Notes: generated by a model from the sequence alone, not told the origin. Positions 2,108-46,579 are shown, counted from the first letter of the stretch. The stretch is 64,000 bases of DNA from Candidatus Saccharimonadales bacterium (GCA_025451045.1 JANWLD010000003.1:133690-197689), one strand, 5' to 3'. Program-made: numbers and translations.

Positions 2108-3172
2108 TTAAAGCGAGATTTTGCTGAAATCGTCCGGATGTTCAGGTGTTTGGTTCGGCTTTTCAACCCCGCCGGGCGGCGGCGGATTACCGCCTGTTTC
2201 TTTTGCTTCTTCCTTGGCAAGGAGTGCCTGAAGATCCGGGTCTTTGGTTGGATCATGAAGCGGTTGGATAACCTTTGTATTAGGATTTTCAGAATTTGAA
2301 ACCGGGGCTGACGGGGCGGGTGTTGGTGGAGCTGGCGCCGGGGTTTCTGTAGCAGGCGCCTCTTGTGGTTTTATTACGGTCGAAGGAAGCGTGCCGCTAG
2401 GTTCGCTGGCGGGCGGATGCTTGGCATCACCGGTTTGCACCAGTGTTTTCTCTTCTTCGGCTAAGGCTTCAGCCAGATTCGGACCGATTGAAGGTTCATC
2501 GGATTTGTCATCGGCTTTATCATCAGCCTTCGGCTTTTCTTCGCCCGCACTGTCAGGCAGGGTAACTTCTATTTTTTTAGCCTCCGATTTAGGCGGTTCA
2601 GGAACGGGAGTGCTGGGCGCAGGTGCTGGTGGTGTTGGAGACGCTGCAGCTGCCGGCGCAGATGGAGCGACTGGTGGCGAGTCAGGCGGTTGGGCTTCTT
2701 TAGTACCCTCTTCCTGAGCAGGCGCTGGACTAGGCGGGGTCGGTTCGGCCGGAGCCGGTGTTTCAACCGGTTTAGCTTCCTCAGCCGCCGGCGCGGCAGT
2801 CGTTTCATTGCCCATAATCTTTTTAACTGAAGCGACAACATCCTCCAGCGTAACCTGGCTTTTTACCAGATAAAGGTCGGCCCCAAGCTTGTCGGCGCGC
2901 TCTTTGTCTTCAGCTTGCGAAAGAGCGGTCATCATAATGACTTTAGTATCTTTGGTCTCAGGGGCGTTGCGTAGGATGTCGAGCATGTCAAAGCCGCTGA
3001 TTTTCGGCATCATGACATCGGTAATAATTAAAGCCGGCTTTTCTTTGACGGCGATAGCCAGCGCTTCTTCTCCGTCCGGCGCGGAGACTATTTCGTAGCC
3101 CTCCGCAGTCAGGCGCGCTTCATAGATTTCCCTTAAATTATTGTCGTCTTCTACAAGTAGAATTTTGGCCAT
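2108..3172 (-). CDS. Response regulator, receiver domain only, with a ~230-aa Pro/Ala/Glu/Lys-rich low-complexity tail
   Basis: N-terminal CheY-like REC (LLVEDD...DVMMPKISGF...KS); the remainder is PAPA/PTPP-type low complexity with no recognisable output domain. Confidence 0.8.
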   Translation of the reverse strand: MAKILLVEDDNNLREIYEARLTAEGYEIVSAPDGEEALAIAVKEKPALIITDVMMPKISGFDMLDILRNAPETKDTKVIMMTALSQAEDKERADKLGADLYLVKSQVTLEDVVASVKKIMGNETTAAPAAEEAKPVETPAPAEPTPPSPAPAQEEGTKEAQPPDSPPVAPSAPAAAASPTPPAPAPSTPVPEPPKSEAKKIEVTLPDSAGEEKPKADDKADDKSDEPSIGPNLAEALAEEEKTLVQTGDAKHPPASEPSGTLPSTVIKPQEAPATETPAPAPPTPAPSAPVSNSENPNTKVIQPLHDPTKDPDLQALLAKEEAKETGGNPPPPGGVEKPNQTPEHPDDFSKISL

Positions 3173-3304: not shown

Positions 3305-5059
3305 TCATGTTTGTGCTTGTGCCGGTTTAATTTGGGCTTGGCTTTTGAGCTGTTGGGCTCTTTGGGCGCTCAAGCGTGGAAAGTTGATATAAAAGGTACT
3401 GCCTTCGCCCAGTTTACTTTCAGCCCAGATGTTACCGTTATAAAGCTCGACGATCTTCTTGCAGATGAACAGGCCGAGGCCGGTACCTCCGATGGCGCGG
3501 GTAGAAGAATTATCAACCCGGTAGAATTTTTGAAACAGATGCGGCACATCTTCTTCCGGTATGCCCGGGCCAGTGTCGGAAATCTTTATCTGCACTACCT
3601 GATCGTTGCCGGTAATCCCGATTATCACCTGCCCTTCAGTCGTATATTTGACGGCGTTGTCAAAAACATTAGTAATCACTTCGCGGACGCGGTCCGGATC
3701 GATATTGGTGTAGTAAAGCGGTTGTATGGTCTTCATGCCGCCGCTGGTATCGATGACGCCGGAAGAATTGGCGTTGGAGTTGATGACCAGCTCCATTTTC
3801 AGGCCTTTCTTCTCGGCGCTGAAACGCAGATCCTCAGCCAGCTGGGTGACGAAACCGCCCATCTCTATGATGTCCGGATGGCTGGTTAACCGGCCATCTT
3901 CGGCCTTGGCGCTGGTCAGTAAGTCCTGAAATAGTTTGCCCAAATGTTGAGTGCTCAGATGGGCTTTGGCCAGAAATTCCCGCGCGTTGTTGTCAATCTT
4001 GCTGACCTTGTCATTTAAGGCCAAGGCCAGGTAGCCCTCAATGGCGGCAACCGGCGTGCGCATCTCGTGGCTGGCGGTACTGATGAAGTCGGCTCGCTGT
4101 TGTTCCTCGGCTTTCTCTTTACTGACATCGCGGAAAACGGCTACAGCGCCAACCAGCTGGTTGTTCTTGGGTAAAATAACCGGCGAAATTGCCAATGAAA
4201 TGAATATATTTTTGTTCTGGCGGTTTATAAGCTGTAATGTTTCTTTAACCTGTTGCTGGCGGGTAATGACTGAATTAAACGGATGTTCACTTTCGGGGAT
4301 AACCGCACCGGATTTGGTGTCTTGTACCAGCTTCAAAACCGGCCGGACATCAAGGCCTAGCGCTTCGGCCACCGGCCAGCCAGTCAGCTGGGAGGCGGCG
4401 TTGTTTATCAGGGTTATTTTGCCTTGAGTGTCCACGGCTATTATTCCATCGGTAATTGATTGGACCAGTATTTCAGACTGCTGCTCATTGCTTTTAAGCA
4501 TTCCGGAAAGTTTGTTGACCTGCCTGGATGATTCGGTGATAAATTTATTCCGCCAGAAGAAATAAGCAATAATTAAAACGACCACTGCGCTAATTAGCAG
4601 GATGGTGTAGTGGGAGGTCAGGTTGGCGATGTCGAACTGTATCTCCATCAGCAGATAAATAAAAGTCACTAAAAGCGTACCGATAAGAATCGGTATACCG
4701 TACATCCCCTCCAAAAAGCCCACGCCAAGCCATGTAACCAAGTAGATAAGCAAGCCGCTGTTGGTCTGGTCCATTACATCAAGCAGCGGCAACACAATCA
4801 TGAACGAAGCGGCAAAGGTGGCCAAGGTCAGGCTAACGCGGGCAACGAACCAATAAACTATCAGCAGGTAAAGCAAGTTGATACCAGCCAAAACCAGCAA
4901 CGCGTCATTAAGGCCATATTTGTCTGCCAACTGGGTGTTATCAGTAAAACGGGTGAACAAATACCCGCCCAAAAGCAACGCGTTTACGGCGGTAAGGACT
5001 ATATAATGCAACCGGTACCAAAACTTCGGAACGTGCTCTAGCAACTCATCGAGAATCAT
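3305..5059 (-). CDS. Membrane sensor histidine kinase (multi-TM N-terminus, PAS-like, HisKA, HATPase_c)
   Basis: H-box SHEMRTP, N-box DNAVKYT, G-boxes DTGPGIP and GGTGLGL; hydrophobic N-terminal ~170 aa. Confidence 0.88.
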   Translation of the reverse strand: MILDELLEHVPKFWYRLHYIVLTAVNALLLGGYLFTRFTDNTQLADKYGLNDALLVLAGINLLYLLIVYWFVARVSLTLATFAASFMIVLPLLDVMDQTNSGLLIYLVTWLGVGFLEGMYGIPILIGTLLVTFIYLLMEIQFDIANLTSHYTILLISAVVVLIIAYFFWRNKFITESSRQVNKLSGMLKSNEQQSEILVQSITDGIIAVDTQGKITLINNAASQLTGWPVAEALGLDVRPVLKLVQDTKSGAVIPESEHPFNSVITRQQQVKETLQLINRQNKNIFISLAISPVILPKNNQLVGAVAVFRDVSKEKAEEQQRADFISTASHEMRTPVAAIEGYLALALNDKVSKIDNNAREFLAKAHLSTQHLGKLFQDLLTSAKAEDGRLTSHPDIIEMGGFVTQLAEDLRFSAEKKGLKMELVINSNANSSGVIDTSGGMKTIQPLYYTNIDPDRVREVITNVFDNAVKYTTEGQVIIGITGNDQVVQIKISDTGPGIPEEDVPHLFQKFYRVDNSSTRAIGGTGLGLFICKKIVELYNGNIWAESKLGEGSTFYINFPRLSAQRAQQLKSQAQIKPAQAQT

Positions 5060-5132
5060 TAAGACAAATTATACTCCAAATGCTTATGCTTGAGCCAATC
5101 TGTTATACTAAAGTCCTAAAAATAGTAGTTGT

Positions 5133-5207
5133 GGTCGCATCGTCTAACGGCTAGGACACCAGGTTCTCATCCTGGCAATCGGGGTTCGATTCCCCGTGCG
5201 ATCACCA
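5133..5207 (+). tRNA. tRNA-Glu (anticodon CUC), CCA encoded
   Basis: Manual cloverleaf: acceptor GGTCGCA/TGCGATC, D-stem GTCT/GGAC, anticodon stem CCAGG/CCTGG with loop TTCTCAT, T-arm CGGGG-TTCGATT-CCCCG, discriminator A plus CCA. Confidence 0.9.
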
Positions 5208-5260
5208 CAAATCCAACGACGCTTCGCTCGTGACTACATAAATGTCCCCCGGACATTTAT

Positions 5261-5286
5261 GGGTTCGATTCCCCGTGCGATCACCA
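5261..5286 (+). repeat. 26-nt exact duplicate of the tRNA-Glu 3' end (T-arm half, acceptor, CCA)
   Basis: GGGTTCGATTCCCCGTGCGATCACCA occurs at 5182-5207 and again at 5261-5286; no matching 5' acceptor strand upstream of the second copy. Confidence 0.85.
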
Positions 5287-5294
5287 AGCTTGAC

Positions 5295-5828
5295 CTATAT
5301 TGGGTCTTTTTTGAGTTTGAGCCTGTAGCCTATGTAGCTTGATATTAAATGCATTAAGAACCAAACAATTATAATTAAAATGTATTGCTCAAGGCTTAAA
5401 ATTATAACGATAGAACTAAAAAGTAATCCGCCAACAATATAATCCAGCTGGTCAAACGGAAACCAGCTTTTACCCGAGTCCACATTAAGTTGCCTTTTGA
5501 CAAAGCTTTTGACCAAATCGCCGAATAACGCGCCAAAGCTTAGCAATACACCAAGCCAGATTGTCAGCTCGCTATAATCTAAGCCCCCTGCCGTTCCGCC
5601 GATTTGAGTCTGAAGATAAAATACCCAACTGCCCATCAATGTTCCTGCAACGATGCCGCGGATAGTTTTGTGCGGTCCGAGCAACGGCTTGCCCCGAAAT
5701 TTGCGGCCAAAGTCCAGCGGAGCGTTTAGCTCGCGTAAAACCGGTAGCTTAGCCGTGAAAATGGGCGTCATATTGGCGATACCGGCCGGTAAGAAAAACC
5801 ACAGACTGAACAAAAGGTCAGACATCAT
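5295..5828 (-). CDS. CarS-like (DUF46) CDP-archaeol synthase family membrane cytidylyltransferase
   Basis: 177-aa multi-TM protein; LPAGIANMTP...PLDFGRKF.GKPLLGPHKTIRG matches the family signature as I recall it; size fits; ATGA overlap with the upstream gene. Confidence 0.65.
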   Translation of the reverse strand: MMSDLLFSLWFFLPAGIANMTPIFTAKLPVLRELNAPLDFGRKFRGKPLLGPHKTIRGIVAGTLMGSWVFYLQTQIGGTAGGLDYSELTIWLGVLLSFGALFGDLVKSFVKRQLNVDSGKSWFPFDQLDYIVGGLLFSSIVIILSLEQYILIIIVWFLMHLISSYIGYRLKLKKDPI

Positions 5829-6448
5829 ACCCTATCCCCGATAAAACGGATGCGCTCGAAGATGGAAATGGTCCCAAGTATCGCTACTATGGCGGAGGCG
5901 AACAAGACTTGGCCTGCGAACATGCCGACGATGATTATTAGGATGCGGATTTCAAACGGCACCAGGCCCTCGTTGTACAAGCGGTTCACTTTATGGTGGT
6001 CGTCCGGCTTGTGGTTTATGGCGTAAGCTACCTCGCCCTTAGCTTTTATATAAGTGACGGTCAGGGTGCTGCCCAGTGCGAGCATCGGCACCCAGGCCCA
6101 GGAGTAATATGCGCCTTGGGATAGATAATACGCAACACCGCTGTAAATCAGAGTTTCCTTTACTCTGTCGGTCGAAGCGTCCAGCATCATGCCGCGCGGG
6201 CTGGCAATTTTTTTATACCGGGCCAGTTCCCCATCCAAGACGTCAAACAGTCCGAAAATTATCATAAGTATGCCAGCCAGCTCCAGTTTGCCATATGCTA
6301 TCAAAAGCGCTATCGGCAAATGAGCGGCTACGCTGACCCACGTCACCATATCCGGGGTAATGCGTCCACCGCTCGCTTTGTCCAGACTTTTGGCTAATTT
6401 CGCCATGTTACGCCGGATAATCCCCCGCAAGGCATCAAGCACTTTCAT
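5825..6448 (-). CDS. CDP-alcohol phosphatidyltransferase
   Basis: DVLDGELAR-x8-G-x3-D-x3-D motif (FDVLDGELARYKKIASPRGMMLDASTDRV); start moved to the internal Met (MKVLDAL); the track ORF extends to 6523. Confidence 0.85.
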   Translation of the reverse strand: MKVLDALRGIIRRNMAKLAKSLDKASGGRITPDMVTWVSVAAHLPIALLIAYGKLELAGILMIIFGLFDVLDGELARYKKIASPRGMMLDASTDRVKETLIYSGVAYYLSQGAYYSWAWVPMLALGSTLTVTYIKAKGEVAYAINHKPDDHHKVNRLYNEGLVPFEIRILIIIVGMFAGQVLFASAIVAILGTISIFERIRFIGDRV

Positions 6449-6656
6449 CTGACAATTGTAACACTGGCTTTTTAAAAGATGATACCCTTTGAGGCCTCTT
6501 TCAAAACATCCTCTACGCCCCAAAGCTGCCCTTCCTTGCTATAACTATCCAAAATTTTCTAACCATATCTAGAGATATGCTGATAAAATTGTTAAATGGT
6601 TACATCAAGAAATCATCAGCTTTGGAATCGAAGCAGAGTCTTGAAAGAGGCCTAGC

Positions 6657-7328
6657 ATGAAATATACCCTTCATACGGCCAAGATTGCCGATTGGGAGAA
6701 GTCCACGAAAGACCCGCATAATTTCTGGCAGAAAGTTGCCATCCGGTCGCATGGCGTTCTAACGCCCGCCAACATTGCCAGTGTAATAGGCGGCCTGCTG
6801 GCGCTTTACGGGCTTTGGATAATTTTAGACGGTGAAACAGTAAAAGGACTTGGTTTTATTGCTGCTGGCCGGATAGCTGATGTCGCCGACGGGATAATCG
6901 CCGAACGGACTAAGACCAAAAGTCCGCTTGGCGAAACAATTGATGCTACGGTGGATAAAATAGTCATAGGCGCAACGCTTTTGGTGCTGGGGGCGATGGA
7001 ATTGGTACCTTGGTTAATCATCGGTATAGTAGCGCTGCAAAACATTGCTAATGTGATTATCAGCGTTGTCGCTAAGCTCAGGGATAAGACCATTCATCCC
7101 TCGCGGCTCGGTAAAGTTTCGGCGGCTTTCAGCTGGGTGACGATTATCCTCTATCCGCTCGGCCAACATTTGCAGGAACAAGCCTATTACGGCATAGGTA
7201 GATTTCTGGTTGTGTTATCGCTGGCCAGCTTTGTCATTTATGTGGTTATGGGGCTTCAGGCCAGCTTGAGTTACGGATTGGTCATATACAAAGAGCCCGC
7301 CCGCCGGCTGTATAGATTATTTAGATAA
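6657..7328 (+). CDS. CDP-alcohol phosphatidyltransferase (second, divergent paralog)
   Basis: ADVADGIIAERTKTKSPLGETIDATVDK fits DxxDGxxAR...G...D...D; multi-TM. Confidence 0.8.
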   Translation: MKYTLHTAKIADWEKSTKDPHNFWQKVAIRSHGVLTPANIASVIGGLLALYGLWIILDGETVKGLGFIAAGRIADVADGIIAERTKTKSPLGETIDATVDKIVIGATLLVLGAMELVPWLIIGIVALQNIANVIISVVAKLRDKTIHPSRLGKVSAAFSWVTIILYPLGQHLQEQAYYGIGRFLVVLSLASFVIYVVMGLQASLSYGLVIYKEPARRLYRLFR

Positions 7329-7350
7329 AAACTCCTAGAATATAAGAATT

Positions 7351-8343
7351 ATGGCAGAGAGTTTGATTGCCGGGGATAACCTATTACTTAAGTTTGATAA
7401 ATTTGTCATTTTTTATAATCCGCTCAGTACTAATTCGCGCCGTTCACGCAAGCGGATTACCGAATTAAAAGAATTGTTCCCTTCCAAAGACGTCCAGATA
7501 ATTGAGACTTCGCCGGACGGATTGGCGGCCAACAAAAAATTAGTCGCCCGCGCAGCAAAAAAGTTTGATCAGCAAACGCTTGTCTGCATTGCCGCCGGCG
7601 ACGGGACGGTCAGCGCGGTACTGGACGCTCTTTTTGCGAATGATTCCACCGTATCAGACCAAGCCAAGAAGGTTCCTATCCTGCCGCTCTGGGGCGGTAA
7701 TGCCAATGACTTGGCCTATATGATAAACGGCCGGCCAAAAGGCCTTAGCCTGAAAAATATATTCGAAAAAGGCCAAATTGTGCCTATATATCCACTAACT
7801 ATAAAATTAAGCTCAAACGAAGGCACGGACAAAAGAATCGCCGCCTGTTATGTCAGCTTCGGCGCTTCGGCTTATGTCGCCAGCCAGCTGGACCTGCCTA
7901 GGCATCGGAGGATGACAACCCGTTTATTGCCCGGCGCCCGTTTAGTTGCCGAGTTTTTAATAACTACCCGCTCACTTATAAAAGCCCCGGCGTTTACTAT
8001 AAGCACCGGACATAGTCAGGAGCCGGTTTATGAGCGGATATTCATCAATGGGTCGCGTATTGCCAAGATTGACCGCTTGCCTTCGCGCCTTAACGAAAAA
8101 GCGTTTTATGAAGCTACGCTGGAACGCAAGCATCCGAAAAGCCTGATTTCCCTGCTTTCGGCGCTGAAAATATTGCGCAACCGGACTTACGGCGAAATTA
8201 CTGAAAAGGATCGTTCTTTCAGCCTGAACGATGACACTTGGGCCCAAGTAGACGGCGAAGTAATGAAACTGCCAAAAAATATGAAGGTAGAAATAAGCCT
8301 TAGCGAGACGCCTTTTTACGTTGTCAGCACAAAATTAGGATAA
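7351..8343 (+). CDS. Diacylglycerol kinase catalytic-domain lipid kinase (YegS/BmrU-like)
   Basis: AAGDGTVSAV nucleotide-binding motif and GGNANDLA motif. Confidence 0.75.
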   Translation: MAESLIAGDNLLLKFDKFVIFYNPLSTNSRRSRKRITELKELFPSKDVQIIETSPDGLAANKKLVARAAKKFDQQTLVCIAAGDGTVSAVLDALFANDSTVSDQAKKVPILPLWGGNANDLAYMINGRPKGLSLKNIFEKGQIVPIYPLTIKLSSNEGTDKRIAACYVSFGASAYVASQLDLPRHRRMTTRLLPGARLVAEFLITTRSLIKAPAFTISTGHSQEPVYERIFINGSRIAKIDRLPSRLNEKAFYEATLERKHPKSLISLLSALKILRNRTYGEITEKDRSFSLNDDTWAQVDGEVMKLPKNMKVEISLSETPFYVVSTKLG

Positions 8344-8403
8344 ATAGTTAGCGCCTTAAATATTTTGCTATACTGTTGCTATATGAAGGAGTTAAGAGGT
8401 GGT

Positions 8404-10410
8404 ATGAGCACGGACCAGCAAGCCGCCAATGTAATCCGAATCCTCTCGGCCGCTATGGTTGAGCGAGCAGGCAGCGGCCACCCCGGCGGCGCTATGGGCG
8501 CCGCCGATTTTATTCATGTCCTGTTTTCCGAATTCATGGTCGAAGACCCGGACAATCCGAAATGGCCTTGGCGTGATAGGTTTTTCCTCGATGCCGGGCA
8601 TATGTCGCCGATGATTTACAGTATCCTCACCCTGACTGGCCGGATGCCAATGGAGGAAATAAAAAACTTCCGGCAATGGGGCAGCAAAACTCCCGGTCAC
8701 CCGGAACGGGATTTGGACCTTGGGATAGAAAATACCAGCGGGCCACTCGGCCAAGGCCATGTCTTTGGTGTCGGTGCGGCCATCGCGGCCAAATTCCTAC
8801 AGGCTCGCTTTGGCGATTGGCAGGACCACACCATCTATTGCTTCATCAGCGACGGCGGTATCCAGGAAGAAATCAGCCAAGGCGCTGGGCGTATAGCGGG
8901 CAATCTGGGTTTGTCTAATTTGGTAATGTTCTATGACAGCAACCAAATTCAATTGTCGACCGAAACCAAAGCCGCGACTAGTGAAGATACTGCCAAAAAG
9001 TACGAAGCTTGGGGCTGGCGAACAATTACCATTGAGGGTAATAATCAGGACGAAATAAGAAAGGCGCTAAAAGCCGCCAAGGCTGAAAAATCCAAACCTA
9101 CATTGATTATTGGCAACACTGTCATGGGCAAATTCGCGCTGGACGAACATGGTAAGAAATTCGAACATCAAGTCAGCATGCACGGTATGCCGATTTCCGG
9201 CGCTGGCGGCTCGTATGAGAAAACTATTAAGAATCTTGGCGGCGACGTAGCTAATCCTTTTGTAATTCCCGATTCAGTTAAAGAGCTTTACGGGCAGTCG
9301 GCTGAGCGAAAAAAACAGGATGTTGCCGCTAGCAAAAAAGCGGAGTCGGAGTGGCGCAAAAATAATCTGGACAAAGCCAAGGATTTGGATTTTTACCTGT
9401 CCGGCCAACCGCCAAAGCTTGATTGGGGAAAAATTGCAAAAGAGCAAAAAGCAGATGCCGCAACCCGCGCAACCAGCAGCTATGTGTTGAGCCAGTTTGC
9501 TGAAAATATCGGAAATATGATTGTCATGAGCGCGGACCTAGCTAACAGCGATAAAACTGACGGCTTTTTAAAGAAATCTAAACCGTTTGTTCATGGTGAT
9601 TTTTCCGGCGCTTTTTTGCACTGCGGCGTCTCTGAGTTCACCATGGGCGCTCTGTCTATTGGTATGGCATTGCATGGCGGTGTGATTCCGGTTTGCGGTA
9701 CGTTCTTTGCCTTTTCTGATTATATGAAGCCAACGCTTCGTTTGGCGGCGCTGATGGAAGTTCCGGTCAAGTTTATGTGGACGCACGATGCTTTTCGCGT
9801 CGGCGAAGACGGCCCTACCCACCAGCCGGTTGAACAGGAAGCCCAATTGCGCCTGCTAGAGAAAGTTCATAACCATAGCGGCAAGCCCGGCTTCTTGGCG
9901 CTTCGTCCGGCAGATGGCGCTGAAACGACCGTTGCCTGGAAGATGGCTCTAGAAAATACTTCCACGCCAACGGGGCTTATCTTTACCCGCCAAAATATAG
10001 TTGATGTTACGGATTACAAACTGGCTCTAAACGCCGAGAAAGGCGCATACATTGCCCATGAGCCTAAAGGAAAGCCAGAGCTGGTAATTGTAGCTAACGG
10101 CAGCGAAGTCGGCTCGGCTTACGCCGCCATAAAGATGATTAAAGGAAAAAATATCCGTCTTGTGTCTGTTCCGAGCGAAGGCTTGTTCCGTGAACAACCC
10201 AAGGCTTACCAAGATTCAATCCTGCCAAGAGATGTCCCCCGATTCGGCGTGACAGCTGGCTTGGCTGTAAACCTGCTAGGACTTGTCGGTGATATAGATA
10301 GAATCCACAGTCTTGAGCATTTCGGCTTCAGCGCGCCTTATCAAAAGCTGGACGAAGAATTCGGCTTCACCCCAAAAGCCCTCGCTAAAGAAATCAAAGA
10401 GCTGGTTTAA
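8404..10410 (+). CDS. tkt: Transketolase
   Basis: GSGHPGGAMGAAD ThDP motif and full-length family features; start placed at MSTDQQ after SD AAGAGGTGG (track ORF starts at 8365). Confidence 0.93.
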   Translation: MSTDQQAANVIRILSAAMVERAGSGHPGGAMGAADFIHVLFSEFMVEDPDNPKWPWRDRFFLDAGHMSPMIYSILTLTGRMPMEEIKNFRQWGSKTPGHPERDLDLGIENTSGPLGQGHVFGVGAAIAAKFLQARFGDWQDHTIYCFISDGGIQEEISQGAGRIAGNLGLSNLVMFYDSNQIQLSTETKAATSEDTAKKYEAWGWRTITIEGNNQDEIRKALKAAKAEKSKPTLIIGNTVMGKFALDEHGKKFEHQVSMHGMPISGAGGSYEKTIKNLGGDVANPFVIPDSVKELYGQSAERKKQDVAASKKAESEWRKNNLDKAKDLDFYLSGQPPKLDWGKIAKEQKADAATRATSSYVLSQFAENIGNMIVMSADLANSDKTDGFLKKSKPFVHGDFSGAFLHCGVSEFTMGALSIGMALHGGVIPVCGTFFAFSDYMKPTLRLAALMEVPVKFMWTHDAFRVGEDGPTHQPVEQEAQLRLLEKVHNHSGKPGFLALRPADGAETTVAWKMALENTSTPTGLIFTRQNIVDVTDYKLALNAEKGAYIAHEPKGKPELVIVANGSEVGSAYAAIKMIKGKNIRLVSVPSEGLFREQPKAYQDSILPRDVPRFGVTAGLAVNLLGLVGDIDRIHSLEHFGFSAPYQKLDEEFGFTPKALAKEIKELV

Positions 10411-32273: not shown

Positions 32274-32987
32274 TCAAACCAGTTTGTATTCACCGTCTGA
32301 TTCTTCAAGATGATAAACTTGGCTTTTGCGCTCAATGATTATCGGCCACTTTTTGGCTTTTGCATGTTCAAGCAGGGTTTTGTTAGGGTTGAAGGCTATG
32401 GGTTTCTCAACCAGTTCCAACATTGGTATATCACCCTCGGTATCGCCGACTCCTATGCTTCCTTCCAGCGACAAACCTTTCGCGTCAATAATTTTTTGCA
32501 AGGTCTTGCCCTTCGCCCCTGCCGGGAAGCTGGCATAGCCGCCGAATTTATCGCCAGACTTTTTGTATTTGGTACCGGTCCATTCGTCAAAACCGTAATA
32601 TTTGGAAACTTTTTCAACTATTTCGTACTGCGAGCCGGAAATCGCTATCAGATAGTATCCTTTGTCTTTCAGCTCAGCTACCAAGTCGCGCGTGTAGGTA
32701 TAGACTTGGTCTTTATATTTTGCGAATACTTTGTCGACTGCTTTAGAAAATACGGATATATTCAGCTGGCTTACGTGCTTGTCGAATATCTCAATCGATT
32801 TATTCGCGTAGTTCTCGTAGGCTTTTTCCGAGCTGCGGGCTTTCCAGGAATCAAACAGGTTATGTACTTCCCGGTAATCTTCATTATCTATCAGTCCTTC
32901 GATTGCCAGTTCATAGAAAACGGCCATGAAAAGCTGCCAGCGGATAAGCGTTCCGTCAAAATCAAACACCGCAAACCTTTTGCTCAT
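32274..32987 (-). CDS. HAD-IB family hydrolase (phosphoserine phosphatase-like)
   Basis: FDFDGTL motif I, S/T motif II region, and GVGDTEGDIPML motif IV. Confidence 0.78.
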   Translation of the reverse strand: MSKRFAVFDFDGTLIRWQLFMAVFYELAIEGLIDNEDYREVHNLFDSWKARSSEKAYENYANKSIEIFDKHVSQLNISVFSKAVDKVFAKYKDQVYTYTRDLVAELKDKGYYLIAISGSQYEIVEKVSKYYGFDEWTGTKYKKSGDKFGGYASFPAGAKGKTLQKIIDAKGLSLEGSIGVGDTEGDIPMLELVEKPIAFNPNKTLLEHAKAKKWPIIIERKSQVYHLEESDGEYKLV

Positions 32988-33781
32988 AGGACTAACTCTA
33001 TGCTTACCGGGCAGTGGTCGGAGCCCATGACGTCGGCGTGGATTTCAGCCAATTTGACCTTGTCTTTTAACGAGTCGGAAACCAGGAAATAATCAATCCG
33101 CCAGCCGACGTTGCGTGCTCGGGCATTAGCCCAATGCGTCCACCAGGTGTAATGGCCGTTGCCACTAGTAAACATTCTAAAAGTATCAACAAAACCGGCG
33201 TCTAAAAAGTTCTGGAAGCCTTCGCGCTCCTCGTCGGTAAAGCCCTTTTTGCCGATGTTCGGTTTTGGCCGTGCCAGGTCTTCCTCTGTATGTGCAACAT
33301 TTAGATCCCCACAAAAAATAACCGGTTTTTTCTGTTCCAACTCTTTGCAATAGGCCAAAAAGGCCGGATCCCACTGCTTGTGGCGCAGAGGTACGCGGGA
33401 TAAATCATCCTTGGCGTTCGGAGTATAGACAGTAACGACATAGAATTTATCGAATTCGGCGGCGATTACCCTGCCTTCTTTGCTCGGGTCGCCGTAATTG
33501 TCGGCTACCAAGCCGTATTTATTGGCGATATGTACGGGTAATCCGTTGATAACGGCTTTGGGCTTTATCTTAGTAAAAATCGCAGTGCCGGAGTAGCCCT
33601 TTTTTTCGGCAGAGTTCCAGTATTCTTCATAGTCTGGCAAATCTACTTCCGATTGTCCCTGTTGGGCCTTGGTTTCCTGCAGACACAGAATATCCGGTTT
33701 ATGTTTTTCGGCAAACGGCATAAATAACTTCTTATTATGGACGGCTCTTATACCATTCACATTCCAGCTATATATTTTCAT
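32984..33781 (-). CDS. xth: Exodeoxyribonuclease III
   Basis: MKIYSWNVNGIRA, LQETK, and SDHCPV at the C-terminus. Confidence 0.92.
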   Translation of the reverse strand: MKIYSWNVNGIRAVHNKKLFMPFAEKHKPDILCLQETKAQQGQSEVDLPDYEEYWNSAEKKGYSGTAIFTKIKPKAVINGLPVHIANKYGLVADNYGDPSKEGRVIAAEFDKFYVVTVYTPNAKDDLSRVPLRHKQWDPAFLAYCKELEQKKPVIFCGDLNVAHTEEDLARPKPNIGKKGFTDEEREGFQNFLDAGFVDTFRMFTSGNGHYTWWTHWANARARNVGWRIDYFLVSDSLKDKVKLAEIHADVMGSDHCPVSIELVL

Positions 33782-44439: not shown

Positions 44440-45468
44440 ATGACTGACAAGACTTCCGACTACAAAATTGCGACTCTTGGGAGCCATTCCGCGCTTCAGA
44501 TACTAAAAGGCGCGCGCGACGAAGGCTTTAAAACAATGATAATCGCCCTCAAGGGACGGACTCAGCCGTATGAGTCTTTCAAAGTTGCCGATGAGATAAT
44601 TGAGCTGGAATCATTCAAGGACCTCCCCGGTTTGGAACAGCGGCTGATTGATGAGAATGTGATTTTAGTACCGCACGGCTCATTTTTTAGCGCCTATACC
44701 GATTTGGAGGCATTAAACCAATCCGACGCGCTTTACTTCGGTAATAAAAAGATTTTGCCATGGGAACAAAGCCGGACTAAACAGCGTGAATGGCTGAAAA
44801 AAGCCGGACTGACCCTGCCGAAGATTTATGATAAGCCCGAAGATATCGACGGCCCTTGCATCATCAAGTTTTATGGTGCTGGCGGCGGCAAAGGATACTT
44901 TTTGGCCAAGACCGCCGAAGAGTTTTATGAAAAAATCAAACCTCATAAAGACAAGAGATACATAATCCAGCAATACATCGTCGGAGCGCCGCTGTATGTA
45001 CATTACTTCTACTCGCCGCTAACAGGCGAGCTCGAAGTGATGAGCATGGACAAGCGTTACGAGACCAACGTCGATTCCATCGGGCGTATAAGCGCCAAAG
45101 ACCAACTGGATTTGAATATCGAAAGCTCTTACAACATCATGGGCAACCTGCCGGTGGTAGTACGCGAATCGATGTTGCCGCAGATATTTTCTATGGGTGA
45201 AGAGGTCGTTAAGGTTTCCAAGAAACTGGAGCCGGGCGGACTCACCGGACCGTTTTGCCTGGAAACAATAGTCACGCCGGAACTGGAATTTTATGTATTT
45301 GAAATTTCCGCCCGCATCGTCGCGGGGACTAATCCGTACATCAACGGCTCGCCCTATACTGATCTTCGTTACAAAGAACCAATGAGTACCGGTCGCCGCG
45401 TAGCACGAGAGATAAAGCTAGCATTAGAAAGTGATGAAATAGAAAAGGTTTTGATAAATGGCAATTGA
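44440..45468 (+). CDS. purP: Archaeal-type 5-formaminoimidazole-4-carboxamide ribonucleotide (FAICAR) synthetase, PurP family
   Basis: IATLGSHSALQILKGARDEGFKT N-terminal signature, then an ATP-grasp region. Confidence 0.78.
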   Translation: MTDKTSDYKIATLGSHSALQILKGARDEGFKTMIIALKGRTQPYESFKVADEIIELESFKDLPGLEQRLIDENVILVPHGSFFSAYTDLEALNQSDALYFGNKKILPWEQSRTKQREWLKKAGLTLPKIYDKPEDIDGPCIIKFYGAGGGKGYFLAKTAEEFYEKIKPHKDKRYIIQQYIVGAPLYVHYFYSPLTGELEVMSMDKRYETNVDSIGRISAKDQLDLNIESSYNIMGNLPVVVRESMLPQIFSMGEEVVKVSKKLEPGGLTGPFCLETIVTPELEFYVFEISARIVAGTNPYINGSPYTDLRYKEPMSTGRRVAREIKLALESDEIEKVLINGN

Positions 45469-46579
45469 CAGCAGCAAACTACTAGACGGTTATGACTTGA
45501 ATAACATTCGCATTGCTACGCTCGGCGGACATAGCGCGCTGGACGTATGCCGCGGCGCGAAGAGCGAAGGGTTCGAAACGGTCGTTGTAGCCCAAAAAGA
45601 CCGCGCCAAGACTTTTACCGATTATTACAAAACCCGCGGTAACAAAGGCTGTGTCGACCATGTCATCTTGGTAGATGATTTCGCGGACGTAGCCAAGCCG
45701 GAAATCCAGAAACAACTACGCGAATTAAACGCGGTATTCGTACATAGCCGTTACTTTTGGGTTTACTGCGATATCAACCAGATTGAAAATGATTTTAACG
45801 TGCCGATTATCGGCAACCGGGTGCTGGTGCGCAAAGAAGAGCGCGACGAAGAAAAAAACCAGTACTTCCTACTCAAAGAAGCCGGTATAAATATCCCGAA
45901 ACAGTTTGCTGATCCAAAAGACATTGACCGTCAGGTTATCGTCAAGGCTGCCGAAGCGAACCGTAAGTATGAGCGGGCCTTTTTCTTGGTGCATAGCTAT
46001 GAAGACTATCTGGCCGAGTCCAAGAAACGTTTGGACAGCGGCGCTATAGATAAGCAGTCTTTAGACAATGCGATTATCGAAGAATTTGTTCTTGGTCCGC
46101 AATTGAACTTGAATTTCTTTTATTCGCCAGTTACGGATGAGCTGGAGCTACTGGGAACTGACACTCGCCGCCAGACTAATATAGATGGTCTCTTGCGCCT
46201 GACCGCAACTGAGCAGACTGAAGTATTGAAGCACGTCCGGCCGCAATATATCGAGAACGGACATATAGCCGTCACTATAAAAGAATCTTTGCTGGAAAAG
46301 GCATATGAAGCCGGCGAGAAGTTTGTTGAGTCGGTTGCCAAGCATTATCCGCCCGGTATGATTGGCCCGTTTGCCCTCCAAGGCGCGATTACCCCCGGCC
46401 CGCCAAAAGAAAAATTGTTTGTTTTTGACGTGAGCATGCGCATTCCCGGCAGTCCCGGTACAATGTTTACGCCCTACTCCGGCTATATGTACGGTGAAAA
46501 TATGAGCGTTGGCAAGCGCCTGGCCATGGAAGTCAAACAAGCCATAGCCGAAAATAAATTAGATCTATTAATTACTTAA
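45458..46579 (+). CDS. PurP-family paralog (second ATP-grasp formate-dependent ligase-like gene)
   Basis: IATLGGHSALDVCRGAKSEGFET; overlaps the first purP by 11 nt. Confidence 0.72.
   Translation: MAIDSSKLLDGYDLNNIRIATLGGHSALDVCRGAKSEGFETVVVAQKDRAKTFTDYYKTRGNKGCVDHVILVDDFADVAKPEIQKQLRELNAVFVHSRYFWVYCDINQIENDFNVPIIGNRVLVRKEERDEEKNQYFLLKEAGINIPKQFADPKDIDRQVIVKAAEANRKYERAFFLVHSYEDYLAESKKRLDSGAIDKQSLDNAIIEEFVLGPQLNLNFFYSPVTDELELLGTDTRRQTNIDGLLRLTATEQTEVLKHVRPQYIENGHIAVTIKESLLEKAYEAGEKFVESVAKHYPPGMIGPFALQGAITPGPPKEKLFVFDVSMRIPGSPGTMFTPYSGYMYGENMSVGKRLAMEVKQAIAENKLDLLIT

Follow-up and report, generated by a model that had tools for sequence, protein, structure and literature searches.

Within a 64,000-nucleotide stretch of DNA (hereafter the window; GCA_025451045.1, JANWLD010000003.1:133690-197689) from a soil-type or environmental Saccharimonadales bacterium of the Patescibacteria, or candidate phyla radiation (CPR), four adjacent genes encode a CarS-family protein, two CDP-alcohol phosphatidyltransferases (CAPTs), here called TrA and TrB, and a lipid kinase of the diacylglycerol (DAG) kinase fold (Table 1). 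The genes form two divergently transcribed pairs, TrA-CarS and TrB-kinase. The original prediction, read from the DNA alone, had described a four-gene lipid cluster at 5295-8343; all four open reading frames (ORFs) are found there, and Pfam scores above cut-off bear out each assigned identity. It had also described one transferase as ATGA-coupled to the CarS-like gene, and this overlap is visible between TrA and CarS; homologous operons likewise have overlapping gene junctions. Homologs of TrA are 207-210 aa long and start at the equivalent of the ATG at 6448 (MKVLDALRG), so the real TrA gene most likely occupies 5825-6448, whereas the mechanical ORF starts at a TTG (6523). As predicted, Pfam annotation of the approximately 57 ORFs of the window detects no CdsA, PlsX/Y/C, or Fab/acyl carrier protein gene; nor does it detect a GGGPS/UbiA ether-lipid gene, a polyprenyl synthase, or a myo-inositol-1-phosphate synthase (MIPS). 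Rfam and tRNA scans of the window returned three tRNAs only and no RNA element inside the cluster, and a promoter and terminator consensus scan of 5000-8600 gave uninformative counts at or below shuffled expectation.

Table 1. The lipid cluster and other features of the window, numbered from its first nucleotide.
Feature	Position	Strand	Basis
CarS-family CTP:lipid-phosphate cytidylyltransferase, proposed CDP-diacylglycerol synthase, 177 aa	5295..5828	-	Pfam PF01864
ATGA overlap of TrA stop codon (TGA) and CarS start codon (ATG)	5825..5828	-	read in sequence ggtATGAtgtct
TrA, CAPT resembling phosphatidylinositol-phosphate (PIP)/archaetidylinositol-phosphate (AIP) synthase, 207 aa	5825..6448 (mechanical ORF to TTG at 6523)	-	PF01066
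Divergent intergenic region TrA/TrB, 208 bp, presumed to hold both promoters	6449..6656	.	position only
TrB, PgsA-like CDP-alcohol phosphotransferase, distinct subfamily without the motif Arg (E83), 223 aa	6657..7328	+	PF01066
DAGK_cat-fold lipid kinase, 330 aa, 22 bp downstream of TrB	7351..8343	+	PF00781
Response regulator receiver domain with a ~240-aa low-complexity tail rich in Pro, Ala, Thr and Glu	2108-3172	-	
PAS histidine kinase	3305-5059		
HAD phosphatase, coupled to the next gene	32274-32987	-	
Exo_endo_phos (EEP) protein	32984-33781	-	
RND-type transporter, 899 aa	41617-44316	-	ACR_tran 278 bits, MMPL 50 bits
Tandem overlapping PurP-like genes	44440-45468, 45458-46579	+	DUF1246 and DUF1297, 240 and 214 bits

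The CarS-like protein matches PF01864 at 113.1 bits (cut-off 22) over profile positions 4-172 of 175 and can be aligned over its full length with A. pernix CarS (5GUF; E 1.6e-13, 29% identity). Its invariant polar residues are all kept (D39, K54, D104, S108, K111, R112, D126, Q127 and D129, identical to ApCarS D41, K57, D100, S104, K107, R108, D122, Q123 and D125), and the same nine positions are invariant across 79 archaeal and bacterial sequences; their roles in a CTP/Mg2+/K+ site are drawn from a review and from conservation. An AlphaFold2 (AF2) model of the protein (pLDDT 94.4) matches 5GUF in Foldseek with E 5.5e-7, TM-scores of 0.74/0.83 and a root-mean-square deviation (rmsd) of 1.7 A over 160 columns, with T. 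maritima CdsA 4Q2G a distant second (TM 0.44, Foldseek probability 0.99). The match to PF01148 is partial (34.6 bits, residues 40-120 against profile positions 157-235 of 264), and the protein shows neither a full-length CdsA match nor the nine-helix architecture (~260-290 aa) of that enzyme. The window protein is thus a bona fide CarS-family cytidylyltransferase and, judged from its conserved residues, looks catalytically competent. With archaeal CarS (5GUF; AF1740) it has in common the PF01864 domain, size, helical membrane fold, polar CTP/Mg-site residues and a gene position directly downstream of a CAPT gene; it differs in its bacterial host, its divergence and the lack of ether-lipid genes in view. 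With CdsA (T. maritima 4Q2E/4Q2G) it has in common the catalytic core and the proposed reaction, phosphatidate + CTP -> CDP-DAG, although at 177 aa it is without the N-terminal half of CdsA.

TrA matches PF01066 (47.6 bits) and carries the complete CAPT motif D-x2-DG-x2-AR-x8-G-x3-D-x3-D (DVLDGELARYKKIASPRGMMLDASTD). Its nearest solved relatives are the mycobacterial PIP synthases 6WM5 and 6H53, and its top NCBIfam models are AIP synthase (82.9 bits, cut-off 180) and PIP synthase (77.3 bits, cut-off 170). Compared with the CDP pocket of MtPis, D31, T34, G72, A75, R76 and G85 are kept and T82 is conservatively replaced by Ser; the four motif Asp residues, R94, Y133 and K135 are identical, with S132 to Thr and R137 to Lys as conservative changes. 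The C-terminal alignment is weak, and there the FEIR segment of TrA is probably the counterpart of MtPis R155. About 37 loci have a TrA-type gene upstream of CarS, and the motif Arg is present in 39 of 41 TrA-type sequences. In seven loci (L013, L020, L026, L033, L037, L043 and L050) the acceptor-phosphate segment of the TrA-type transferase reads N-A-W-G-E instead of K-A-K-G-E; these changes at the K135/R137 positions of MtPis suggest another acceptor in those lineages.

The kinase scores 43.1 bits against PF00781 (cut-off 23.6), and 54 homologs keep its GDGT, GxNxND and DGE motifs without variation. A sequence search of the PDB gave no significant match. The top Foldseek matches of its AF2 model (pLDDT 89.8) are all lipid kinases, led by DgkB 2QVL (E 2.4e-15) and including SphK1 (TM 0.70), AGK, YegS and BmrU, ahead of NAD kinases. 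The protein is a DAGK-fold lipid kinase with no assignable subfamily: it has the fold and the three signature motifs of DgkB, YegS, BmrU and sphingosine kinase, but it is only 14-18% identical to solved members, its C-terminal domain is matched by no Pfam model, and some of its relatives, unlike the soluble DAGK_cat kinases, are fused to an integral-membrane CAPT.

That fusion partner is of the TrB type. TrB matches PF01066 at 62.9 bits, and its family profile ranks S. aureus PgsA 7DRJ first among solved structures (45 bits, E 4e-11, 147 positions). Like PgsA, TrB retains the glycines and all four aspartates of the motif; in contrast to PgsA, the Arg position of the motif (DVADGIIAERTKTKSPLGETIDATVD) holds Glu (E83). 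Throughout the subfamily, which numbers 364 cluster representatives at E<=1e-30, this substitution is the rule: among 150 representatives examined, 149 had a recognisable motif, with D, E, H, Q, A or similar at this position in 146 and Arg in three. The TrB family also differs from PgsA in a conserved T-x-T-K-S-P-L-G-E segment and an N-terminal LH..K.ADW...N.WQ segment. A Kennedy-type (CPT/EPT) assignment, prompted by the SPLGE segment, was rejected as the primary one, CPT1 scoring 17.5 bits compared with 45 for PgsA. Because the subfamily is without the canonical CDP-binding Arg, the reaction of TrB is uncertain. Natural TrB::kinase fusions of 524-550 aa, with PF01066 N-terminal and PF00781 C-terminal, make up nine of the 150 representatives (examples of the architecture are P0171, P0188, P0193, P0198, P0207, P0212, P0219, P0233, P0234, P0237 and L081:8001-9653), and the two genes are adjacent in many more.

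The fusions and the altered active site at the CDP alpha-phosphate position could also be taken to mean that TrB and the kinase strip head groups from scavenged phospholipids. TrB would then run in reverse (phospholipid + CMP -> CDP-compound + DAG, or phosphatidylglycerol phosphate (PGP) + CMP -> CDP-DAG + glycerol-3-phosphate), the kinase joined to it would trap the lipid or make it ready, and CarS and TrA would rebuild phosphatidylinositol (PI). CAPT reactions are reversible in principle and a phosphatidylglycerol kinase activity of YegS is on record, both of which count for such a device. It is nevertheless purely speculative, and the fusion could equally well serve to hold a soluble kinase at the membrane, attached to a partner in the pathway; we consider the stripping device extremely unlikely.

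The strongest evidence on the function of the cluster comes from comparative gene context, for which approximately 20-kb neighbourhoods of 80 loci with a CarS homolog were compared. The whole divergent block (kinase and TrB on one side, TrA and CarS on the other), without a PHP-domain phosphoesterase gene, is kept in L001-L005; a reduced form, in which the kinase is divergent from TrA and CarS and TrB is missing, occurs in L006; and variants of the module are found in more than 45 further loci. The retention of the block and its variants elsewhere therefore argue against chance juxtaposition. About 45 loci show CarS linked to a TrA-type transferase and about 40 show it linked to a PHP phosphoesterase; its linkage to a lipid kinase takes the form of two independent architectures. 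Most Saccharibacteria have the order TrA-type CAPT, PHP phosphoesterase, CarS, with overlapping junctions; 9-10 Levyibacteria/Microgenomates-type loci have a CAPT beside a PHP -> YegS-type lipid kinase -> CarS series; and archaeal, mostly DPANN, loci have CAPT -> CarS. In L081 and L082 a TrB::kinase fusion is divergent from TrA-PHP-CarS, which is the layout of the window with the kinase fused and the PHP gene retained, and the divergent TrA/TrB arrangement is common to these two loci and L001-L005.

The PHP protein is a 217-aa phosphoesterase in L012:9336-9989 (+), with equivalents in about 40 of the 80 loci (e.g., L084:3533-4186 and L081:6679-7332) from Saccharibacteria, Levyibacteria, Roizmanbacteria and others. 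Its gene either separates the TrA-type transferase gene from CarS or precedes the kinase and CarS. The protein matches no family in particular (the CehA/McbA-type score of 47.9 bits is below cut-off) and has no close solved structure; the position of its gene makes it a candidate PIP or PGP phosphatase. An inositol connection is apparent in two phyla. In L084, a Saccharibacteria-like contig of 1.1 Mb, a MIPS gene (L084:1893-3083 (+)) stands directly next to the TrA-PHP-CarS operon. The kinase of this locus is transcribed divergently from TrA, with a TrB-type CAPT close by and a gene of the inositol-monophosphatase family at a distance of about 5 kb; the PIP and AIP synthase models score equally here, at 88 bits. 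The Levyibacteriota locus L016 has MIPS (L016:6723-7841 (+)) about 2 kb from the module. The MIPS beside the module scores 487 bits to TIGR03450, and the L084 and L016 proteins share 80% identity, a high value given that the phyla differ. Together, conserved gene order, fusions and the neighbouring MIPS genes indicate that kinase, cytidylyltransferase, CAPT and phosphatase are functionally linked, and the MIPS adjacency in two phyla points to PI as a likely product, alongside a second lipid.

We propose that the cluster is probably a module for phospholipid head-group activation and attachment, the local form of one conserved in Patescibacteria. The DAGK-fold kinase would phosphorylate a neutral membrane glycerolipid, likeliest scavenged or recycled DAG, to phosphatidate, and the CarS-family enzyme would join this lipid phosphate with CTP to give a CDP-activated lipid, likeliest CDP-DAG. 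TrA would move the phosphatidyl group onto inositol-1-phosphate, and a phosphatase, for which the PHP phosphoesterase between TrA and CarS is the candidate in most relatives, would convert the resulting PIP to PI. TrB, tied to the kinase by adjacency here and by fusion elsewhere, would make a second product; the default guess is a PGP- or cardiolipin-type lipid, with the altered CDP site leaving both donor and acceptor open. The original prediction had described such a route as self-contained. Its central idea of kinase, then cytidylyltransferase, then transferase is upheld by synteny, fusions and the neighbouring MIPS genes, but the route is not self-contained at this locus because TrA-type enzymes make a phosphorylated product and the PHP phosphoesterase is missing from the window.

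A close analogy is the actinobacterial PI route (MIPS Ino1, PgsA1 and an Rv2252-type DAG kinase). The nearest solved relatives of TrA come from that route and its CDP-pocket and inositol-1-phosphate-phosphate residues are conserved, relatives carry MIPS next to the module, with which a DAGK_cat kinase is also associated, and a dephosphorylation step is implied. The module differs in having a CarS-family enzyme instead of CdsA, in the low score of TrA to the PIP synthase model (77 bits where 170 is the cut-off), and in the PHP phosphatase candidate linked to it in relatives, with neither MIPS nor PHP in the window itself. Identities, folds, catalytic-residue conservation, gene coupling, synteny, fusions and MIPS adjacency in relatives are direct observations. 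The substrates, the salvage role and the replacement of CdsA we infer from family membership and context, and this applies especially to CarS, whose proposed activity on diacyl phosphatidate follows from its context, not from homology: the partners of the module (DAGK-fold kinase, PHP phosphoesterase and MIPS) suggest a diacyl substrate.

Several results weigh against this proposal. Purified A. fulgidus CarS favours the archaeal substrate DGGGP over phosphatidate and fails to complement an E. coli cdsA mutant (PMC9385802), and no experimental precedent for a CarS-family enzyme acting on diacyl phosphatidate was found in the literature. The window protein narrowly misses the NCBIfam equivalog NF003114 (138.1 bits, cut-off 148), the threshold above which a protein may specifically be named CDP-2,3-bis-(O-geranylgeranyl)-sn-glycerol synthase. 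TrA is far below every equivalog cut-off, and no equivalent of MtPis R152, which is strictly conserved, or of R195 could be placed in its weak C-terminal alignment. TrB is also far below cut-off for the pgsA model TIGR00560 (40.7 bits, cut-off 109.1) and for ClsA (38.2 bits), and it is without the motif Arg that in MtPis binds the alpha-phosphate of CDP-DAG. The kinase scores 20.5 bits against TIGR00147 (YegS/Rv2252/BmrU; cut-off 118.65). With TrA, TrB and the kinase far below their equivalog cut-offs and CarS just below, homology alone does not allow specific functions to be assigned. In addition, tblastn of the window found no match for the PHP partner or for MIPS, so that PI synthesis in this organism would rest on genes outside the window. 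Finally, the closed genome of S. epibionticum ML1, a cultivated Saccharibacterium of the oral type, has no PF01864, PF01148, PF00781, PF01553 or PF02660 (PMC10633639, Tables S1/S2), and its sole CAPT, SEML1_0297, is non-essential in Tn-seq (PMC10633639). The CarS module is thus lineage-specific and not a universal CPR solution, and mammal-associated lineages appear to have lost it entirely.

The same enzymology could operate in a cell where it serves neither salvage nor the replacement of CdsA. De novo phosphatidate synthesis (PlsX/Y/C and fatty-acid synthase), and perhaps CdsA, would be encoded elsewhere; the cluster would be an ordinary inositol-lipid head-group branch, and the kinase would only recycle DAG, as Gram-positive DgkB does. 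DgkB-type kinases have an established part in the recycling of DAG. The window, moreover, is richer in biosynthesis than oral TM7, with two LeuA-like genes, DAHP synthase, PurP, GMP synthase and adenylosuccinate synthetase, and the contig to which it belongs is at least 265 kb long, compared with 64 kb for the window. Against this, reconstructions of Saccharibacteria, one of them from soil, report no fatty-acid synthesis (PMC6031116, PMC10633639), and neither the window nor any examined neighbourhood of approximately 20 kb contains a gene of the de novo pathway. The closed ML1 genome, as noted above, has none of PF01148, PF01553 and PF02660; absence of CdsA is therefore possible within the phylum. 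We consider this alternative unlikely.

A different question is whether the CarS-like protein has kept the substrate class of its archaeal relatives. Isoprenoid or ether lipid phosphates, either taken from archaeal partners or self-made, would then be activated, and TrA would be an AIP synthase. The selectivity of characterised CarS for DGGGP favours this assignment, as do the marginally higher score of TrA on the AIP synthase model given above, the close CarS homologs of DPANN archaea (37-47% identity), and the reported parasitism of some Patescibacteria on methanogens (PMC12281837, PMC10936435). However, the window and the conserved neighbourhoods contain no ether-lipid pathway gene (GGGPS, DGGGPS/UbiA or the G1P dehydrogenase G1PDH) and no polyprenyl synthase, the two synthase models tie in L084, and cultivated Saccharibacteria grow on Actinobacteria (PMC10633639). 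The partner kinases are also DgkB/YegS-type, and actinobacterial PI, PIP synthase and Rv2252-type kinase offer the closer analogy. We regard retention of the archaeal substrate as distinctly improbable, and diacyl phosphatidate as the likelier substrate of the window enzyme.

The closest relatives of the window CarS are all from metagenome-assembled genomes (MAGs) of 'Candidatus Saccharimonadales', and in a neighbour-joining (NJ) tree it falls in a 48-member Patescibacterial clade without archaeal sequences, adjoined by a mixed clade of DPANN and Patescibacteria; the window clade is archaea-free in only 55 of 100 bootstrap replicates. The label archaeal-type in the original prediction therefore holds for the family, while with this weak support the window gene does not look like an obviously recent import from archaea, and we make no strong claim on the direction of horizontal transfer.

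Some loci in the CarS set stand apart. In L060, L061, L067, L073, L075 and L077, from small-genome bacteria, CarS has gyrB on one side and the nusG-rplK-rplA ribosomal cluster on the other, and only L061 offers a lipid partner, a CAPT. Several of these MAGs bear the label Gammaproteobacteria or Bdellovibrionales; in the tree, the L073 CarS groups with archaeal sequences. L025, L026, L027, L030 and L045 have a typical Patescibacterial CAPT-PHP-(kinase)-CarS operon, and in L022 CarS is alone on a 4-kb contig, yet the tree groups it with those operons. All six are labelled Gammaproteobacteria, Limnocylindria, Lysobacterales or Ktedonobacteraceae, and their taxon labels or binning look unreliable. 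On the archaeal side, the Woesearchaeota operon L062:7391-10525 (+), from a lipid-dependent DPANN archaeon, encodes a YegS/Rv2252/BmrU-family kinase (168 bits, above cut-off), a DUF212/PAP2-like protein, a phosphatidylserine decarboxylase, a CAPT and CarS in this order, which by analogy suggests an archaeol-salvage counterpart of the bacterial module. EEP genes are directly beside CarS in three DPANN loci (L036:10554-11327, L066 and L068); the EEP family includes phospholipase-C-like and inositol-phosphatase members, and these enzymes may belong to an archaeal version of the module.

Other neighbours of CarS raise the possibility that the cluster makes no bulk phospholipid. At least 12 Saccharibacterial loci (L009, L012, L015, L017, L026, L033, L034, L037-L039, L042 and L050) have, after CarS and on the opposite strand, genes for a PIG-L deacetylase (GlcNAc-PI de-N-acetylase/MshB family, 107 bits) and a bifunctional phosphoglucose/phosphomannose isomerase (bact-PGI_C, 155 bits); the pair is compatible with glycosylated inositol lipids. 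In L083:3567-6023, on a 1.25-Mb contig, a kinase is divergent to a 195-aa CAPT (motif DGLAAK, Lys at the Arg position) and adjoins the undecaprenyl-diphosphatase gene BacA, with no CarS within 5 kb, so a kinase-CAPT pair can exist without CarS. The CTP_transf_1 superfamily also includes CTP-dependent dolichol and phytol kinases. CarS could then be a CTP-dependent lipid or prenol kinase or an activator of polyprenyl phosphate, with the CAPTs building a phospho-linked envelope polymer or glycolipid anchor, for which the non-canonical CDP site of TrB, the BacA neighbour, the superfamily membership and the deacetylase and isomerase genes all speak. The end-to-end CarS match with every invariant residue and the 1.7 A rmsd to 5GUF argue otherwise, a second kinase would be redundant beside the separate ATP-type lipid kinase, and MIPS adjacency together with the PIP-synthase-like residues of TrA points to an inositol phospholipid. 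A dolichol-kinase-like role of the CarS-like protein was ranked low for the same reasons, and we judge a prenol or envelope pathway very unlikely compared with the phospholipid module.

The surroundings of the cluster in the window contain further features, listed in Table 1. The cluster is flanked by tRNA-Glu and a histidine kinase/response regulator pair on one side and by transketolase on the other; the PAS histidine kinase adjoins the regulator with the long tail, and this pair flanks the cluster in L001 and L004 too. A HAD phosphatase gene and an EEP gene form a coupled pair elsewhere in the window. Actinobacterial MMPL-type transporters move lipids, and by analogy the RND-type transporter is a possible candidate for lipid import or export. 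The PurP-like pair belongs to the archaeal-type FAICAR synthetase family, a further archaeal-type enzyme in this bacterium.

The salvage concept is not itself new. Starr et al. described in 2018 a similar scheme, the interconversion of phosphatidate, CDP-DAG and PGP, cardiolipin or PI in a soil Saccharibacterium unable to make fatty acids (PMC6031116), and PGAP/IMG labels already read 'CDP-archaeol synthase', 'diacylglycerol kinase family' and 'CDP-alcohol phosphatidyltransferase/PGP synthase'. Our literature search found no relevant paper linking CDP-archaeol synthase or CarS with Saccharibacteria, Patescibacteria or CPR, and no mention of the CarS-family cytidylyltransferase, its operon partners, the TrB::kinase fusions or the Arg-less CAPT subfamily; Coleman et al. 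(2019) treat neither CarS nor CdsA. Saccharibacteria are generally without fatty-acid synthesis (PMC10633639, PMC11665869, PMC6031116), and a 2024 perspective noted that the mechanisms of lipid uptake and processing in Patescibacteria had not been identified (PMC11665869). For the question of how ultrasmall CPR bacteria that lack fatty-acid synthesis build and tailor their membranes, the module provides a concrete and widely conserved gene set. Likewise, a 2022 review lists no PIP phosphatase from bacteria or archaea, actinobacteria included (PMC9385802), and the CarS-linked PHP phosphoesterase is a testable candidate for this long-missing enzyme.

A broader view, which we hold tentatively and with the balance somewhat against it, is that CarS-family enzymes are the working CDP-DAG synthases of much of the Patescibacteria, acting on ester-linked phosphatidate within a salvage module that includes the PHP candidate and the Arg-less CAPT/kinase unit, in a branch related to the CarS of lipid-scavenging DPANN archaea, with which it was possibly exchanged. 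The combination of kinase, CarS and CAPT in the Woesearchaeota operon suggests a solution common to both radiations of host-dependent microbes, CPR and DPANN. The interest of the module rises if a CarS-family enzyme is shown to use phosphatidate: the CarS/CdsA split would then not be a strict divide that sets archaeal substrates apart from bacterial ones, and a family supposed to uphold the lipid divide on the archaeal side would have a bacterial branch with a switched substrate class.

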